Shown: piece after piece, positions 41,424 through 49,646 of the stretch
Position numbering within the stretch: position 1 is the stretch's first letter
Layout of the letters: every line of letters begins with the position of its first letter
DNA from: a phage
Sequence record: PZ295659.1
Reading direction: 5' to 3' (one strand)
Length of the DNA: 64,000 nucleotides
Notes under the pieces: model-generated
Databases searched by the model: none
The model's input: the letters and a program-made list of their open reading frames with translations, nothing else
Told to the model about the DNA's origin: nothing
Translations under genes and position numbers: made by a program

Positions 41424-41726
41424 TTAGATAGATTTAGGCTCTAATTTTATTTTCATGAACTCGGCAAATTGTCTGGCAGTTTTTATGCCTTGTTCATGAC
41501 ATTCAAATGCATCATCACAGGGGCTATTTTTGTAATGCTTTGCCATATACTTATAAAATTTTTCAGAATTCTCAACATTTTGAATTTCGAACAAAGTATA
41601 TACGTTTTTAATCCCTGATTCCATAAAGTTGTCAAAGTACGGGTCAACATATGCAGTGCCAACGATAGGAGTTGTTGCTGCAAAAAACCCCAGCATCGCC
41701 ACAATGGCTATCGCTCTTAAGGCCAT
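41424..41726 (-). CDS. secreted/periplasmic protein
   Basis: 100 aa with N-terminal signal-peptide-like hydrophobic segment. Confidence 0.5.
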   Translation of the reverse strand: MALRAIAIVAMLGFFAATTPIVGTAYVDPYFDNFMESGIKNVYTLFEIQNVENSEKFYKYMAKHYKNSPCDDAFECHEQGIKTARQFAEFMKIKLEPKSI

Positions 41727-41978: not shown

Positions 41979-42560
41979 TTATAACAACCCTGTCAAATCA
42001 TTCCAATGCTTCCGGCATAATGACACATATCTATCGGTGTCACCAATTTCAATTTGACTGCCATCTGTAATTGGAAGTCCGTCTTCCGTGACTCTAGCTA
42101 CCATTGTGGCCTTTTTACCACAATGACAGACACCTTTAAGTTCAACAAGCTTATCGGCAATAGCCATTAATGCTTGAGAACCTTCAAATAGATTACCTTT
42201 AAAATCTGTTCGTAGTCCATATGCCATTACCGGCACATTGTATACGTCAACAATACGACTAAGTTGATACACCTTTTCAGTAGTTAAGAATTGAGCTTCA
42301 TCAACAAATACACAATGAATATCCTTTTGTGCTGCAGCCCATTTATAGAATTCAAAGATATCCATGTCTTTTGTAATTATATTGGCGTCCTGACGAATAC
42401 CAATACGAGAGACTATTTCACCTTTTGAATCGCGAGTATCAATAGCCGGTTTAAGAACTAATACACTCATGCCACGTTCTTTATAGTTATGAGCGGCAGT
42501 AAGTAATGAAGCAGACTTACCAGCGTTCATAGCGGCATATGTAAAAATTAAACTAGCCAT
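41979..42560 (-). CDS. tk: thymidine kinase
   Basis: 193 aa; P-loop YAAMNAGKS, zinc-ligand Cys pairs CHCGKK...SLCRKH; colinear with T4 Tk. Confidence 0.95.
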   Translation of the reverse strand: MASLIFTYAAMNAGKSASLLTAAHNYKERGMSVLVLKPAIDTRDSKGEIVSRIGIRQDANIITKDMDIFEFYKWAAAQKDIHCVFVDEAQFLTTEKVYQLSRIVDVYNVPVMAYGLRTDFKGNLFEGSQALMAIADKLVELKGVCHCGKKATMVARVTEDGLPITDGSQIEIGDTDRYVSLCRKHWNDLTGLL

Positions 42561-42750
42561 AAGAGTCCTTAGTTAAATTTTCTAAATATGTTTCTAAATC
42601 ATTTTCAGCTTTATCGATAGATTTTACTAATTCGTAGTATGTTTCAGCATCTCCATAATCCGAAGCCAATTCAAAAGATAAATCTCGTTCTAAACTAATA
42701 ATTTCGCTGATTAAAAATCGTATTTCATTCTTTTGTTCGCGAGTAATCAT
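42553..42750 (-). CDS. hypothetical small acidic protein
   Basis: 65-aa ORF. Confidence 0.45.
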   Translation of the reverse strand: MITREQKNEIRFLISEIISLERDLSFELASDYGDAETYYELVKSIDKAENDLETYLENLTKDSYG

Positions 42751-42953
42751 AAGGAATTTATATAATCAATAAGTTCTTGTTCTTTATCGTCGAAATCTTT
42801 ACACAGTTCTTCGTATTCGTCGGTATTAAAAGGACCGCATTCATCGTAAACTTTTTCCAATTCACTATTTTTATCCATAACTTCGTGAATAAGAGAAAAT
42901 AGTCTGTCTTTTTGTTCTTTACTTAAACTCATAACCATGTAACCTTTAAGCAA
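42747..42953 (-). CDS. hypothetical small acidic protein
   Basis: 68-aa ORF. Confidence 0.45.
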   Translation of the reverse strand: MLKGYMVMSLSKEQKDRLFSLIHEVMDKNSELEKVYDECGPFNTDEYEELCKDFDDKEQELIDYINSL

Positions 42954-43141
42954 TATTCTTCTACATGTTGTTTACGACCTTTCTTATCAATAAAGGTATA
43001 TTCAACGAATGTTCCGATGTAGTCTTTATCTACGTCATGTGGACTATTAATTGGGCATTTAGTACGGCAAATGCGTTCCCATTGACGAATAATTACTGCC
43101 TTATTCTTTGGGTCATATGGATGTGGATAATGTATATTCAT
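42929..43141 (-). CDS. hypothetical protein
   Basis: Track ORF trimmed to ATG 43141 (MNIHYPHPY...). Confidence 0.45.
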   Translation of the reverse strand: MNIHYPHPYDPKNKAVIIRQWERICRTKCPINSPHDVDKDYIGTFVEYTFIDKKGRKQHVEEYCLKVTWL

Positions 43142-43635
43142 AATAATGGTTCCCAATCAACAATCACAATTTCTAGTTTAGTGGAATACGTATCTAAAAT
43201 CTCTTCGATGATATCCCAGTTTCCGCCACCGATACCTGCACCAATTCTTGGCATATAAATTACAGGCTTTGTTATCTTATTCTTTCCGAATTCATTTAAT
43301 TCTATTATACAATTCATTAAAGCAGAGTACTCAAAATTAGGTCCTGGCTCAAACTGTGTATAAAGATTAAAGCAATAAGCTTTATGTGTCTTAAAATATT
43401 TTTCATAAACCGAATAAGTCCCGAGTTTAGACTCGTCTCCGAATTCGGTTTGAAGTTTATCGGCTTCTAGAATTTTTGGATAAGCCTTTGCTAATTGTCC
43501 TGCCACACCAGCGCCCATTGTATGAAAACAATTACACCCATGAGCGATATTATTACCTTTAGAAAACAGGGCGACAATATCGCCCTTGATATAGTTTTTA
43601 ATCACTTGCTGCAAGTCCTCTAGTATAAGAGTCAA
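43138..43635 (-). CDS. macrodomain protein (ADP-ribose binding/hydrolase fold)
   Basis: 165 aa; IAHGCNCFHTMGAGVAGQL and MPRIGAGIGGGNWD glycine-rich macrodomain motifs. Confidence 0.75.
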   Translation of the reverse strand: MTLILEDLQQVIKNYIKGDIVALFSKGNNIAHGCNCFHTMGAGVAGQLAKAYPKILEADKLQTEFGDESKLGTYSVYEKYFKTHKAYCFNLYTQFEPGPNFEYSALMNCIIELNEFGKNKITKPVIYMPRIGAGIGGGNWDIIEEILDTYSTKLEIVIVDWEPLL

Positions 43636-43945
43636 CTAGACGGTCCACCATAGAATTGCATGCTGCCTTATCTTTAGGTTCCGCCACCGAGCATTCTAAT
43701 ATTTGCCATTTTTTATGATATCGTTTAATTAAGGTAGACGCCTTGAACCTACTAGACGCCCCATCTTTTTCTCCGTCTTTATACGCATATAACAATTTTT
43801 GTGAAAAATCTACTTTACACTCTTGACTTTTACCACAATAATCAGACGCCGTTCTGTTTGTATACTCCGTTACATCAGTATATGTAGTATTAGCAAGAGC
43901 GTTAAATGAAACCAAGCCAACTATTAAAGCCAACATTTTGGTCAT
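43598..43945 (-). CDS. secreted Cys-containing protein
   Basis: 115 aa; signal peptide MTKMLALIVGLVSFNALA. Confidence 0.5.
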   Translation of the reverse strand: MTKMLALIVGLVSFNALANTTYTDVTEYTNRTASDYCGKSQECKVDFSQKLLYAYKDGEKDGASSRFKASTLIKRYHKKWQILECSVAEPKDKAACNSMVDRLVDSYTRGLAASD

Positions 43946-44484
43946 TCTTTTATTTCCAGTAGTTTGTTTGATTTAAGGTAATTAGCCTTTTCTAGGACTT
44001 CAGAAGCATATTTACTTCCAGCACTTGTCTTCCATCCCGCATTATATGAGGATATAGCTTTTCTTATATCCCCGTTATGTATATTTAACCAATAAGAAAA
44101 TTCGATATAAGCCCATCTGGCTGAATTAGACCGCTTAGATAGCATTTTCTTAATTTGGGCATCAGACATATTATAACCAAGCTGGTTAATTCTTGCCCTC
44201 ATTGTTGGTAGATAATTTTGGAACATTCCATACGCATGGTGACCTTTCTTATCTTTAAGATTAATACCAGCAGATGATTCCTGCCATAGTATTGCGGCCA
44301 TTATGTATCCAAGTCCTTTCTTATGCATATTTTCATGCGTTTTAAATTTTCCATCCTTAGAAAACTGTTCCCCAAACTGATAAGCATAATTCAAGTTATC
44401 GAGTTGGACATTACTAAAAGTATGCTCGGAGCTATGTGCTGATAAAGAAAGAGCAAATAGACCAGCGAGTAGTGCTTTTCTCAT
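43942..44484 (-). CDS. secreted lytic-transglycosylase-like protein (SLT domain)
   Basis: 180 aa; signal peptide; WQESSAG...AYGMFQ resembles SLT catalytic Glu and AYGLMQ motif. Confidence 0.55.
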   Translation of the reverse strand: MRKALLAGLFALSLSAHSSEHTFSNVQLDNLNYAYQFGEQFSKDGKFKTHENMHKKGLGYIMAAILWQESSAGINLKDKKGHHAYGMFQNYLPTMRARINQLGYNMSDAQIKKMLSKRSNSARWAYIEFSYWLNIHNGDIRKAISSYNAGWKTSAGSKYASEVLEKANYLKSNKLLEIKE

Positions 44485-44492
44485 GTTTACCT

Positions 44493-44951
44493 CTAGATTT
44501 TAATCACTGCTTTAGAAGCTTTTCCTGGTAGTCGTTTACTGTTAATAATAGCCATTCTGCATTGAAGAGTCTTCATTTTGAATGCTGGATTTTCGCGACA
44601 AACTGTAAGTCCTAACCAAAGATTTCCATCAGTTATTTCTAAACGGCCTGGGCGATATTCGACGCCTTCGACAAAATCTTCATCAACATCTGGACGTGCC
44701 GGCATTGATAAAAATTCTGCAACTTCTTTAACATGATTTTTTACTTTACGAAATAATTCAAAAACGTAGTTCTCATCTATTTCCCTCTGGATGGCACGAT
44801 CTAAGAGATGTTGAGAATACTTGATATGAAAGCCTGGTAGTCCAAGAGACTTTGCAGCATCTTTTATACCGGCATTTATTTTGCGGAACTCCGTTTCAAA
44901 GATTCGACGGAGTTTATTACGGCGGATAAAAACGTCTGAATTGATAGTCAT
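44493..44951 (-). CDS. regB: RegB endoribonuclease
   Basis: MTINSDVFIRRNKLRR...KYSQHLLDRAIQREIDENYVFELF...GVEYRPGRLEITDGNLWLG colinear with T4 RegB. Confidence 0.9.
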   Translation of the reverse strand: MTINSDVFIRRNKLRRIFETEFRKINAGIKDAAKSLGLPGFHIKYSQHLLDRAIQREIDENYVFELFRKVKNHVKEVAEFLSMPARPDVDEDFVEGVEYRPGRLEITDGNLWLGLTVCRENPAFKMKTLQCRMAIINSKRLPGKASKAVIKI

Positions 44952-44960
44952 TTTGATTTC

Positions 44961-45008
44961 TCCTCTAGTTGACAGGTCTATAGTAACACAACTAGAGGAG
45001 AAGTAAAC
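44961..45008 (-). promoter_or_regulatory. early promoter stem-loop (PeSL) upstream of regB
   Basis: 12-bp inverted repeat ctcctctagttg/caactagaggag around TATAGT, gtaaac at 45003-45008. Confidence 0.5.
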
Positions 45009-45012
45009 TACT

Positions 45013-45228
45013 TTATTGATAAAATGGAGTTAAAGCCCAAGATTCTTTAGATACCATATCGGCGAAATGCCTCATCTCTTCGATTTGGCGACGACGCTGG
45101 TCAGCGTAGTCTTCTTCGCCTTCTTCCTTACAATCTTCAAGGTCTTCTTCAAGATACTTTAAGTATTCACTACAAATTTTGTTGACCTTTTCTTGAAAGT
45201 CTAATAACCCTGTAATAGTAGAAGCCAT
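45013..45228 (-). CDS. hypothetical acidic protein
   Basis: 71-aa ORF. Confidence 0.45.
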   Translation of the reverse strand: MASTITGLLDFQEKVNKICSEYLKYLEEDLEDCKEEGEEDYADQRRRQIEEMRHFADMVSKESWALTPFYQ

Positions 45229-45662
45229 TAGTATTTTTCCTCAGGTCGAAATACTGCACGACACGCCCACATGCTGGCTTCTTTTAGATGTTGCTTAGCA
45301 TACTTAAGAGCCTGCACTGCATCCATATCTTCTTTGGTTTGTTGCTCTGTTTCGTTTTCTTTCAAGATATATGCTTCTTCAATCAGAGCATCAAACATCA
45401 ATCCAAGACGGACTTCTGCATCTTTAATAGCATTCACTTTACTGATTTTATCGTCGGTATGCGGCTTGTAGCCTTTGATGTCTTCAATCGACATAAGGAA
45501 TTTCCTCATCGGTGGCAAGGTCATATTCGACCAATTGGATAGGCTCATTAATACCATATCCACGTACAGTGATATCGGTTGACGGATATTTTCCAGTAAT
45601 ATCACCCGTTCTAAATGATTCAATGAATGATTGCTCGCCTGAGCAACTAAACCAGGCGGCAA
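45228..45662 (-). CDS. hypothetical protein (start uncertain)
   Basis: 144-aa track ORF; an internal Met (MSIEDIKG) may be the true start. Confidence 0.4.
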   Translation of the reverse strand: MPPGLVAQASNHSLNHLERVILLENIRQPISLYVDMVLMSLSNWSNMTLPPMRKFLMSIEDIKGYKPHTDDKISKVNAIKDAEVRLGLMFDALIEEAYILKENETEQQTKEDMDAVQALKYAKQHLKEASMWACRAVFRPEEKY

Positions 45663-45708
45663 AACATTTTAAAACATCTTCAGACCCTTCTATAATCAAT
45701 TTAGCCAT
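45484..45708 (-). CDS. hypothetical protein
   Basis: 74-aa ORF. Confidence 0.4.
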   Translation of the reverse strand: MAKLIIEGSEDVLKCFAAWFSCSGEQSFIESFRTGDITGKYPSTDITVRGYGINEPIQLVEYDLATDEEIPYVD

Positions 45709-46070
45709 TATAGACTCTCAGTAAAGGTACGAGCGATAACGTCACGCTGCTGTTCCGGAGTCAGAGAGTTAAAGCGAACTGCATAACCGGATACACGGAT
45801 GGTCAGCTGCGGATATTTTTCAGGATGCTTAACTGCATCTTCCAGAGTTTCGCGACGCAGAACGTTAACGTTCAGGTGTTGACCACCTTCAATTTTAACT
45901 TTAGGTTGATGTTCAATTTCAATTTCACGAGCATTAAAACCGTAGAAAATTTCCGGGTCTACAATAGCGTCTTCTTTAAAAGTCTTAGAGACAATAATCC
46001 GGGCTTGAGTATCGTCTTCAAAATAAATAGTGCCTTTATGTGCACCTTCAAGAATTTGATATGCTTTCAT
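45708..46070 (-). CDS. grcA: autonomous glycyl-radical cofactor (GrcA/YfiD-like)
   Basis: C-terminal [59 protein letters not shown] carries the glycyl-radical motif RVSGYAV; 3' half visibly more GC-rich than phage average. Confidence 0.8.
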
Positions 46071-46076
46071 ATAACC

Positions 46077-46385
46077 TCAATTAGAAAATAAATTTATCCA
46101 AGATTTTTCTTTAATCAAAAATGGGTCGGAATTATACGCCATTAAACTTTGAGTGATTAATCCCTTAAATGGTCCATCAATAAATTCCATTTTGAAATGT
46201 GGAATACTAGTCATCAACCGTGCATTAGGAGCAGTACAAAGAACCTGCTGCCCTGCGAACGGACCTTTAGTCAAACGATATCGTTTAGGTTTAAAATGGT
46301 AAATCTCGTAATTTTCTACAAGAGCCCTTTTATTGCATACTGGGCTGTTATAACAATACTCAAAAACTTCAATAGTGGTCATCAT
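46077..46385 (-). CDS. hypothetical protein
   Basis: Track ORF trimmed to ATG 46385, which overlaps upstream stop. Confidence 0.45.
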   Translation of the reverse strand: MMTTIEVFEYCYNSPVCNKRALVENYEIYHFKPKRYRLTKGPFAGQQVLCTAPNARLMTSIPHFKMEFIDGPFKGLITQSLMAYNSDPFLIKEKSWINLFSN

Positions 46386-46921
46386 TGCATTCCAATCACA
46401 AAAAATTGAGGACGAGCAATACCGCCGATGCAATATTTGCTTTTGCAGCAGTGCTGTACTGATTTAATATGGACATTGTAAATCTTATCCATATCAGGAG
46501 CTTTAATAGGCTCGTCAATTATATACAGAATACGAGAAAGCATTAATCCACGGAATTTAGAACCTTCATTGCCAATAAAACTACGGACAGAATCAGTAAA
46601 TAAACGGAATCGAATATCATCGCTAGAATAACGAGAAAATTCTTTTTTAATGTTGCCAACAGAAATTTTAGCATAAGCTGAAGTATTAGAAAGAACAATA
46701 ACTGTTCCACCGTCGTACAGCCAATTAACCGCAAAATTAGTTACTGCGGTCGATTTACCTGATTGTCTGCCACCATCTAAACGAAGTGTACAGTACTGCT
46801 TGAGTACGTCTTCAAATGGCGGGGCATAACCGTTCTTACAAATTTCTTCTACTCTAGCATCAGAATGGTGTGTAAAAGCATTCATCAGGGATAGATAAGG
46901 TCCAGTTAAAAATGTTCTCAT
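46382..46921 (-). CDS. P-loop NTPase-like protein
   Basis: 179 aa; Walker A-like GGRQSGKST. Confidence 0.5.
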   Translation of the reverse strand: MRTFLTGPYLSLMNAFTHHSDARVEEICKNGYAPPFEDVLKQYCTLRLDGGRQSGKSTAVTNFAVNWLYDGGTVIVLSNTSAYAKISVGNIKKEFSRYSSDDIRFRLFTDSVRSFIGNEGSKFRGLMLSRILYIIDEPIKAPDMDKIYNVHIKSVQHCCKSKYCIGGIARPQFFVIGMQ

Positions 46922-48845: not shown

Positions 48846-49127
48846 CTATTTTTCTGAAGCGCCCGAAATATATTTTTCAAGACGTTGTTTCATCAGCGAA
48901 CCGTTCTTGGCGATTTCTTCCGGTTTATCACACATACGCAACAAGGCTTCAAGCTTAACGATATCACTGGTACGTTCAAATTTGCGAGTATCTATCTTAC
49001 TAGCAAGTTCAGAAATACGTGCTAATAGACTTTCAGCTTCAACCAAAGCTGCACCTAGCTTAGTTGCAAATGTGTCAGTAGCTTCGTTAAGAATAGATTC
49101 TGATAAAAATTCACTATATGTTTTCAT
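48846..49127 (-). CDS. internal-protein-like (Ip) with capsid targeting sequence
   Basis: [11 protein letters not shown]-terminus; ATG overlaps stop of lysozyme gene. Confidence 0.6.
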
Positions 49128-49612
49128 ATATACGCTTTCCAAGTTCCTGTTTTAAATGTTGAGATTACGCGTTTCGCACGATTAGGTGTCTGACGATACC
49201 ATTTAGATTGGGCTAGATTTACTGCCGCTTCGTCCCAACGTTTCTGTTGAAGCATACGAAGAGAATTAGTAAAACCAGCGACGCCTGCTACACCCATTTG
49301 GAAGACCATATTAACCAATGCACATCGACGAACTGCATCTAAAGAATCATATACCGGTTTAAGTTTAGCATTACCCAAGATTCCGCGAACGGCTTTATCA
49401 ACGTCTTCATTAAATAGCTTTTCGGCCTCATCAAGGGTAATTGTACCGTTGCATTTACGTCCGATCATTCTGTCAAGTTCAGCTTTAGCTACGGCTAAAG
49501 ACGGGTTCTTTGTTACTAAATGACCTATGCCAATCGTCCAAAAGCCTTCAGTGTCTTTGTATAAAGTCAGTCTAAGACCTTCGTCATTACGAAGCATTTC
49601 AAATATATTCAT
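49124..49612 (-). CDS. e: lysozyme (endolysin) E
   Basis: [32 protein letters not shown]... catalytic E11/D20/T26 context as T4 lysozyme. Confidence 0.95.
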
Positions 49613-49646
49613 AATACCTCCCACGTTTATAGGAGGTATTTATTAC

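Follow-up and report, generated by a model that had tools for sequence, protein, structure and literature searches.

The window analysed here is a 64,000-nucleotide stretch of phage DNA (sequence record PZ295659.1) with a G+C content of about 37%, in which nearly all genes lie on the minus strand. Positions 43138-44484 on the minus strand are occupied by three genes that, judged by sequence, are orthologues of T4 tk.4, vs and vs.1, encoding respectively a macrodomain protein, a protein annotated as 'valyl-tRNA synthetase modifier' and a protein with motifs of the SLT type (Table 1). The 2.1 kb around the cluster share 99% DNA identity with Escherichia phage vB_EcoM_SQ17 and 97-99% with HX01, PHB12, moskry and further Mosigvirus (RB69-like) T-even phages, and on this similarity the window phage is an RB69/HX01-like T-even phage (Mosigvirus). 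When the same 2.1 kb were used as a query, 657 phage records matched, 644 of them aligning over at least 80% of its length, and the open reading frames (ORFs) of the cluster gave PHROG matches with E-values of 1e-35 to 1e-67; taken together, these values put the match far above chance.

The cluster and its gene order

The gene order regB-vs.1-vs-tk.4-tk.3-tk.2-tk.1-tk, obtained from annotated relatives and from T4 itself, is common to T4, VR26, dhabil, F48, Jiaodavirus, an Acinetobacter phage and two metagenomic contigs, and the annotations of tk.4, vs, vs.1 and regB in Mosigvirus relatives agree with it. An earlier note on this DNA, made from the sequence alone, had recognized the three ORFs, and all of them were confirmed in place on the minus strand. 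That note had placed the macrodomain at 43138-43635. The domain itself and the end at 43138 were upheld, but the start was not: position 43635 is merely the first in-frame TTG of a mechanically defined ORF, whereas the GTG at 43605 is annotated in relatives and gives the conserved length of 155 amino acids, and it is therefore preferred.

The genes are tightly packed. A GAGG Shine-Dalgarno sequence precedes the vs.1 ATG and overlaps the regB stop codon. The vs ATG overlaps the vs.1 stop as ATGA, the tk.4 GTG (43605) overlaps the vs stop as GTGATTAA, and the tk.4 stop (ORF end 43138) overlaps the tk.3 ATG, again as ATGA. These overlapping codons indicate start-stop coupling at all three junctions, in line with the coupling that had been proposed for the three genes. 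In the mechanism put forward here, vs.1, vs and tk.4 would be translated in that order from one early minus-strand message by way of the overlapping stop and start codons, so that the output of the region would be RegB first, then two exported proteins, then one cytoplasmic macrodomain. A promoter scan counted 16 sigma-70-like sites, below the 20.7 of shuffled sequence, and no transcription-unit boundaries can therefore be drawn. An Rfam search of positions 42800-45200 returned no match. Plus-strand ORFs across the region (e.g. 43495-43623) were rejected as genes, being short and without support.

Every part of the cluster maps to genes already annotated in hundreds of phages, and its novelty is low; the cluster as such matters little, as it is annotated in T4 and hundreds of relatives and the role of the macrodomain was published in 2025. 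The residual value lies in a predicted periplasmic Vs coupled to an exported Vs.1, in a Gln-for-Lys replacement in the AdfM-type macrodomain Tk.4, and in a conserved hairpin within tk.4. Altogether, we give a probability of roughly 0.8 to an explanation in which Tk.4 is an anti-DarT2 macrodomain, Vs.1 a periplasmic GH23 enzyme, and Vs an exported protein possibly working alongside Vs.1.

Table 1. Genes, protein segments and RNA element of the tk.4-vs-vs.1 region (positions in the window).
Feature	Positions	Strand	Description
vs.1	43942..44484	-	180 amino acids, ATG start; candidate exported GH23/SLT-like lytic transglycosylase
vs.1 signal peptide (predicted)	44431..44484	-	residues 1-18, MRKALLAGLFALSLSAHS, followed by SEH; positive n-region, hydrophobic core (KD10 2.42), small residues at -3/-1
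vs.1 catalytic domain (predicted)	43969..44310	-	residues about 59-172; catalytic Glu69 at 44278-44280, G86MFQ, Y147NAG
vs	43598..43945	-	115 amino acids, ATG start; orthologue of the 'valyl-tRNA synthetase modifier', predicted exported
vs signal peptide (predicted)	43892..43945	-	residues 1-18, MTKMLALIVGLVSFNALA, followed by NTT; KD10 2.77, A-L-A cleavage motif (ALA before N)
tk.4 (adfM orthologue)	43138..43605	-	155 amino acids, GTG start; cytoplasmic macrodomain
regB, upstream flank	44493..44951	-	site-specific endoribonuclease; Pfam REGB_T4 8.8e-69
tk.3, downstream flank	42929..43141	-	Pfam DUF7202 2e-38
RNA stem-loop	43568..43586	-	AGGGCGAUAUUGUCGCCCU, then GUUUUCU; G+C-rich 8-bp stem, 20 nt inside tk.4

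The Tk.4 macrodomain

Tk.4 is 85% identical to T4 Tk.4, has the same length of 155 amino acids, and matches Pfam Macro (PF01661) at 28.4 bits, above the gathering cut-off of 22 (E 1.7e-6, profile positions 2-117 of 118), as expected from the macrodomain call of the earlier note. Seven orthologues share, with little or no variation, the segments H22-G-C-N25-C...M30-G-A-G-V-A-G36 and I121-G-A-G-I-G-G-G128, which hold the two glycine-rich loops that bind the phosphates of ADP-ribose, with Asn25 ahead of the first. A profile built from these seven orthologues and compared with the PDB matched Bacteroides BT1257 (8e-14), the yeast ADP-ribose-1''-phosphatase Poa1p (5e-12), human TARG1/OARD1 (1.5e-8), Streptomyces SCO6735 (7e-8) and the Mycobacterium tuberculosis DarG macrodomain (5m3i, 3.6e-5), and in BT1257, Poa1p and TARG1 the corresponding loops align with both glycine-rich loops of Tk.4 and its conserved Asn25. 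Models of DarG were also matched. The PADLOC DarG hidden Markov model (HMM) recognizes Tk.4 at 1.4e-8 through its macro part only (positions 4-145 of 329), and the NCBIfam DarG model does so at 1.8e-7 (positions 4-146 of 338), with 30.8 bits against an equivalog cut-off of 250. The DarT-binding C-terminal domain of DarG was not found in the 155-residue protein. Because the N-terminal macro part alone is covered and the score is 30.8 rather than 250 bits, Tk.4 is regarded as an orphan macrodomain and not as a DarG; by profile similarity, it stands alone as a macrodomain and belongs to the TARG1/Poa1p/DarG clade. Tk.4 fails our signal-peptide heuristic, as do its cytoplasmic neighbours RegB, Tk and Tk.3.

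What such a protein might do is suggested by work on other phages. A transposon screen of T4 under DarTG2 gave one significant hit, tk.4; a clean tk.4 knockout was sensitized to DarTG2, and the gene was renamed adfM (10.1101/2025.11.20.689424). Moreover, the AdfM of phage PhiKZ takes ADP-ribose off DarT2-modified single-stranded DNA (ssDNA) in vitro (PMC13309987). By orthology with T4 AdfM, Tk.4 probably guards the DNA of the phage against DarT2, the toxin of the host: it would bind ADP-ribosylated thymidine in phage ssDNA and remove, or otherwise neutralize, the DarT2 modification. This protection is likely, the genetics coming from T4 and the hydrolysis chemistry being extended by analogy to the Tk.4 family. 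The earlier note had suggested reversal of ADP-ribosylation, which agrees with the published T4 genetics; nothing was found in support of its other suggestion, the degradation of ADP-ribose-derived signals.

The catalytic residues weigh against a simple transfer of mechanism. In an hhalign comparison, the family-invariant Gln84 of Tk.4 lies opposite the catalytic Lys84 of TARG1, and Gly126 opposite Asp125; the TARG1 sequence used in it was entered by hand (its K84/D125 numbering agrees), and the residue-level alignment covered TARG1 only. With Gln84 and Gly126 at these positions, a lysine mechanism of the DarG/TARG1 type cannot be assumed, and the Gln-for-Lys replacement bears on the mechanism of AdfM-type macrodomains. 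The replacement of the TARG1/DarG-type lysine also speaks for a different activity, in which Tk.4 mainly processes ADP-ribose metabolites (ADP-ribose-1''-phosphate, O-acetyl-ADP-ribose) or reverses the protein or RNA ADP-ribosylation carried out by phage Alt, ModA and ModB. The closest solved relatives, BT1257 and the ADP-ribose-1''-phosphatase Poa1p, rank before DarG, and the legacy annotation of Tk.4 reads 'A1pp phosphatase'. However, T4 tk.4 was the only significant DarTG2 hit, its clean knockout was sensitized, and its loss had no fitness effect in LB, in M9 or on CFE299, a uropathogenic Escherichia coli (UPEC) isolate (mutant fitness values here and below are published transposon data for T4, not for the window phage; 10.1101/2025.11.20.689424). 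The DarG HMMs, in addition, match over the entire Tk.4 macrodomain. On balance, a main role in metabolite processing or in the reversal of Alt, ModA and ModB modification appears improbable, and anti-DarT2 protection is retained as the likely function.

Vs.1 and Vs, two predicted exported proteins

Vs.1 is 83% identical to T4 Vs.1 and 100% identical to a protein of phage AV115. In an alignment of 32 sequences (41-83% identity), E69, S71, G86, Q89, N90, Y147, N148, G150 and Y159 are invariant and fall in the motifs QESSAG, YGMFQN and SYNAG. The three motifs (E-S, GMFQ, YNAG) correspond to those of family-1 lytic transglycosylases. Fold comparison of a structure model, which is of low confidence over the signal peptide, revealed an alpha-helical fold like that of goose-type lysozyme and a confident assignment to GH23 (Slt/MltF/goose-lysozyme). 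Within the family, 30 of the 32 members match the Pfam SLT profile at E<=0.01, the best at 1.3e-7, and a marginal SLT similarity of Vs.1 in T4-like phages had been reported by 2006. The predicted signal peptide has a cleavage motif of AHS before S, and the same n/h/c layout is kept in 31 of the 32 homologues despite sequence drift. The signal-peptide-bearing protein with SLT-like motifs described in the earlier note is thus Vs.1, in which E69-S, G86MFQ and Y147NAG are invariant across the 32 homologues, and the secreted Cys-containing protein of the note is Vs, whose four invariant cysteines and predicted export are discussed below. A lipoprotein reading of the window Vs.1 and Vs was rejected, as neither has a lipobox Cys.

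Proteins like Vs.1 were found in 2,053 phage records, including Ackermannviridae, Felix-O1-like phages (Ounavirinae) and Vibrio and Aeromonas phages, and the distant representatives examined keep a hydrophobic N-terminus and an E-S/E-T motif. Elsewhere in the window, at 49124-49624, lies the endolysin e, of the T4-lysozyme type; the SLT-like protein is separate from it, as had been anticipated, and Vs.1 is therefore an additional muralytic candidate. From its sequence motifs and modelled fold, Vs.1 is very likely a lytic transglycosylase that is exported and is distinct from the endolysin. It would leave the cytoplasm via the Sec pathway with cleavage of an 18-residue signal peptide and would then be a small soluble periplasmic GH23 enzyme, cutting the bonds between N-acetylmuramic acid (MurNAc) and N-acetylglucosamine (GlcNAc) with Glu69 as single acid, in the manner of family-1 lytic transglycosylases. 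Glycan strands would be cut from early in infection, independently of the holin-endolysin pathway.

Several points weigh against this assignment. The window Vs.1 itself reaches 18.3 bits against Pfam SLT (PF01464), below the threshold of 21.3 (E 0.0017, residues 61-154), and PDB sequence searches with the single sequence and with the 32-sequence profile gave nothing significant; recognition of Vs.1 came from fold comparison only. GH23 also includes hydrolytic lysozymes and a chitinase, and the fold therefore cannot separate a transglycosylase from a hydrolase. The signal-peptide calls, for Vs.1 as for Vs, come from our own n/h/c heuristic and not from SignalP. It is conceivable that Vs.1 is a goose-type hydrolytic lysozyme, a chitinase-like GH23 enzyme or a non-catalytic peptidoglycan binder, although we think this set of readings improbable. 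While the fold and the motifs are directly seen, we infer from them the export of Vs.1, its chemistry (transglycosylase as opposed to hydrolase) and its physiological role. The role in superinfection or envelope remodelling raised in the earlier note is pure conjecture. Vs.1 represents a widespread phage GH23 enzyme of predicted export, found in about 2,000 genomes (Straboviridae, Ackermannviridae, Ounavirinae), expressed early and encoded outside the lysis cassette.

The second predicted exported protein, Vs, matches PHROG 1256 at 1.8e-35, is 67% identical to T4 Vs with the same length, and is 100% identical to a protein of phage PTK. It is represented in 796 phage records, and all homologues carry Pfam PF26829 (ValRS_modifier, for valyl-tRNA synthetase, ValRS). 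A homologue search with the single sequence found only 4 proteins, and an alignment-based search was therefore needed; the Vs profile, run against 1.84 billion representative proteins, retrieved 8 clusters only, all phage-like, which leaves the family without bacterial relatives to learn from. A PDB sequence search with Vs gave nothing significant. By our heuristic, an N-terminus of the positive-hydrophobic-AXA kind, resembling a signal peptide, is present in 35 of 36 homologues while its sequence drifts. In the AlphaFold2 model, the predicted local distance difference test (pLDDT) score is below 55 for residues 1-19 and 86.8 for the model, which consists of four helices (20-37, 41-64, 69-85 and 90-114). 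The charge distribution predicts an N-in/C-out topology, with a negatively charged segment after the hydrophobic core. Four cysteines (C37, C43, C85 and C96) are invariant, and the C-terminal motif SMVDRLVDSYxRGL is conserved. Two distant homologues keep all four cysteines, one (P0164) with a lipobox, LSGC, and the other (P0162) with a signal peptide, and the Vs-like proteins of an Acinetobacter phage and of Klebsiella Jiaodavirus have a signal peptide followed by CX5-6C and then CX8-10C. The spacing of the cysteines thus varies among homologues (CX5-6C, CX8-10C). Together with the lipobox variant and the negative charge that follows the hydrophobic core, this variable spacing points to Vs being exported and disulfide-bonded. 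In the mechanism proposed here, the mature protein probably has two disulfides, C37-C43 and C85-C96; after export, a four-helix bundle of about 11 kDa would fold oxidatively in the periplasm.

A predicted periplasmic Vs looks awkward next to the name 'valyl-tRNA synthetase modifier', since a modifier of this enzyme would have its target in the cytoplasm. The cytoplasmic location suited to ValRS binding does not agree with the predicted signal peptide, the N-in/C-out bias, the cysteines or the lipoprotein variant. A literature search returned no mention of a signal peptide on Vs, within a scope that did not cover the original vs papers and the T4 genome review. The genetics and biochemistry of Marchin, Mueller and Neidhardt, as far as they are reflected in citing papers, put Vs on cytoplasmic ValRS, which counts against export. 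On that historical assignment, Vs would be cytoplasmic as annotated and would bind and stabilize host ValRS, with the N-terminus unused for export or the pool partly exported, and with cysteines that are metal-binding or structural. The predicted mature Vs of 11.0 kDa comes near the size of the factor, which Mueller and Marchin reportedly gave in 1977 as about 10 kDa. By helix order, both Cys pairs belong to loops on one and the same side of an up-down bundle of four helices, where a Cys4 metal site is conceivable, and vs was the most depleted T4 gene in M9-glucose vs LB (log2 fold change (log2FC) -2.19, q 0), as is plausible for an aminoacylation factor. Against these points, a positive-hydrophobic-AXA N-terminus kept in 35 of 36 homologues amid drift is the hallmark of a functional signal peptide, the N-terminus of one distant homologue has become a lipoprotein lipobox, the charge distribution gives N-in/C-out, and a variable Cys spacing is unusual for a metal site. 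Full-length His-tagged T4 Vs, when expressed in the E. coli cytoplasm, was insoluble and formed inclusion bodies, and in the loci examined vs is always coupled to the gene of an exported enzyme, vs.1. A solely or mainly cytoplasmic Vs acting on ValRS is for these reasons considered doubtful.

The linkage of vs and vs.1 was followed across nine T4-type loci from eight lineages (T4, the window, VR26, dhabil, F48, Jiaodavirus, an Acinetobacter phage and two metagenomic contigs). In all nine, vs is the next gene after vs.1, and the vs.1 stop codon overlaps or abuts the vs start codon; this fixed position suggests joint or parallel action of Vs and Vs.1 in the envelope. Vs.1-like genes with no Vs partner occur in Pseudotevenvirus, Slopekvirus, Kuttervirus, Felixounavirus and Vibrio and Aeromonas phages, which indicates that Vs.1 does not need Vs and agrees with 2,053 records for Vs.1 vs 796 for Vs. 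A third exported protein is encoded right after vs in three of the lineages. This gene, found in Jiaodavirus and two metagenomic T4-like contigs between vs and tk.4 (L009 2309-2701; L006 4324-4743; L007 778-1185, in our locus numbering) and absent from the window and from T4, makes a run of three secreted proteins; its product has 130-139 amino acids, a signal peptide ending ..VNA before WEKLPGYP, and two cysteines in the mature part.

In T4, tk.4, vs and vs.1 are all non-essential in LB. In LB liquid competition, mean insertion counts were similarly low for vs (26.6) and vs.1 (22.6), compared with 179-652 for neighbouring genes. The strong depletion of vs in M9-glucose given above was accompanied by a mild depletion of vs.1 (log2FC -0.87, p 0.0055, q 0.155), and tk.4 was unaffected; on CFE299, vs.1 was depleted (log2FC -1.20, q 0.015) and vs, at -1.04, not significantly so. 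Two considerations weigh against reading an envelope function into these values: the M9-specific defect of vs fits a role in translation or amino-acid supply at least as well as one in the envelope, and the phenotypes of vs.1 insertions may be polar effects on vs. It is therefore only tentatively proposed, as a possibility, that Vs is not, or not only, a ValRS modifier but a Sec-exported, disulfide-stapled protein that works in the periplasm with Vs.1, for example by regulating, inhibiting or targeting this enzyme, the two forming an early module for envelope remodelling with importance in minimal medium and on wild hosts. If so, a functional label that has stood on vs for 50 years would need revising or extending. 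A secreted, vs.1-coupled Vs offers a concrete alternative for the long-standing question of what Vs is for, and would explain the inclusion bodies.

Hairpin, neighbouring genes and related systems

The stem-loop inside tk.4 (Table 1) was picked up by a terminator-like scan and has a fold z-score of -2.4. T4 and VR26 carry all 19 nt unchanged and dhabil has a single difference, in the loop, while synonymous sites on either side vary; Klebsiella phage F48 lacks the stem-loop. Its function could be attenuation or termination, stabilization of the RNA, or control of tk.4 translation.

Several neighbouring genes on the minus strand were also noted. The vs.4 orthologue (45228-45494) carries the Pfam Acb2/Tad1 hairpin domain (9.6e-18), of an anti-CBASS/anti-Thoeris nucleotide-sponge family; with Acb2 (vs.4) and AdfM (tk.4), at least two counter-defence genes stand in this early block alongside regB and genes for exported proteins. 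Downstream, tk.1 and tk.2 (42553-42750 and 42747-42932) are tandem paralogues with DUF7438 matches of 2e-14 and 8.8e-19 and a stop/start overlap, and the RI antiholin (41424-41726; 4.3e-24), a further exported early protein, lies 1.9 kb downstream of tk.4. Upstream, the vs.6 orthologue (45708-46070) is GrcA-like, a stand-alone glycyl-radical cofactor (Gly_radical 2e-18), and the 179-residue ORF at the vs.8 position (46382-46921) has a Walker-A-like GGRQSGKST with no Pfam match and may be a P-loop protein. In the T4 data (supplementary table 6, 10.1101/2025.11.20.689424), pseT, cef, nrdC.1 and cd.4 are strongly depleted besides vs.1 in the comparison of K-12 with UPEC CFE299, and in that of LB with M9, regA is depleted and td enriched. 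These shifts, unrelated to the cluster, point to host-specific needs for several 'non-essential' early genes.

Among known systems, Tk.4 is most directly compared with T4 Tk.4, that is, AdfM (anti-DarT factor Macrodomain; HIDEN-SEQ preprint 10.1101/2025.11.20.689424), with which it shares its length, 85% of its residues, its place between vs and tk.3 and its stand-alone nature. It differs in belonging to a Mosigvirus and not a Tequatrovirus and in having G127 in the second Gly-rich loop, where T4 has K127. DarG (of DarTG2) and human TARG1/OARD1 belong to the same macrodomain clade, with an hhalign probability of 96% for TARG1; unlike DarG, Tk.4 has no C-terminal DarT-binding domain, and unlike TARG1, it carries Gln84 and Gly126 instead of Lys84 and Asp125. 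By description, PhiKZ gp104 AdfM is likewise a phage-encoded orphan macrodomain countering DarTG2, but, as the protein of a chimallivirus, it enters the phage nucleus by import (Cell Rep 2026, PMC13309987).

For Vs.1, the counterparts are the family-1 GH23 enzymes Slt70, MltE, MltF and EtgA, which share the fold and the E-S, GxxQ and YNxG motifs; EtgA and MltE are also small, single-domain and exported, as is predicted for Vs.1. In contrast to family-1 lytic transglycosylases, Vs.1 is highly divergent in sequence, would be soluble instead of a lipoprotein, and is the product of an early gene that is neither a virion nor a lysis-cassette member. Vs resembles T4 Vs (PF26829) at 67% identity and in length and position, whereas its sequence features (signal peptide, four cysteines, lipoprotein variant) point to the periplasm and away from the cytoplasmic site that the T4 name implies. 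T4 Spackle (gp61.3) and RI are the nearest parallels for Vs and Vs.1 together, as early, small, Sec-dependent, periplasmic proteins concerned with the cell wall or lysis.

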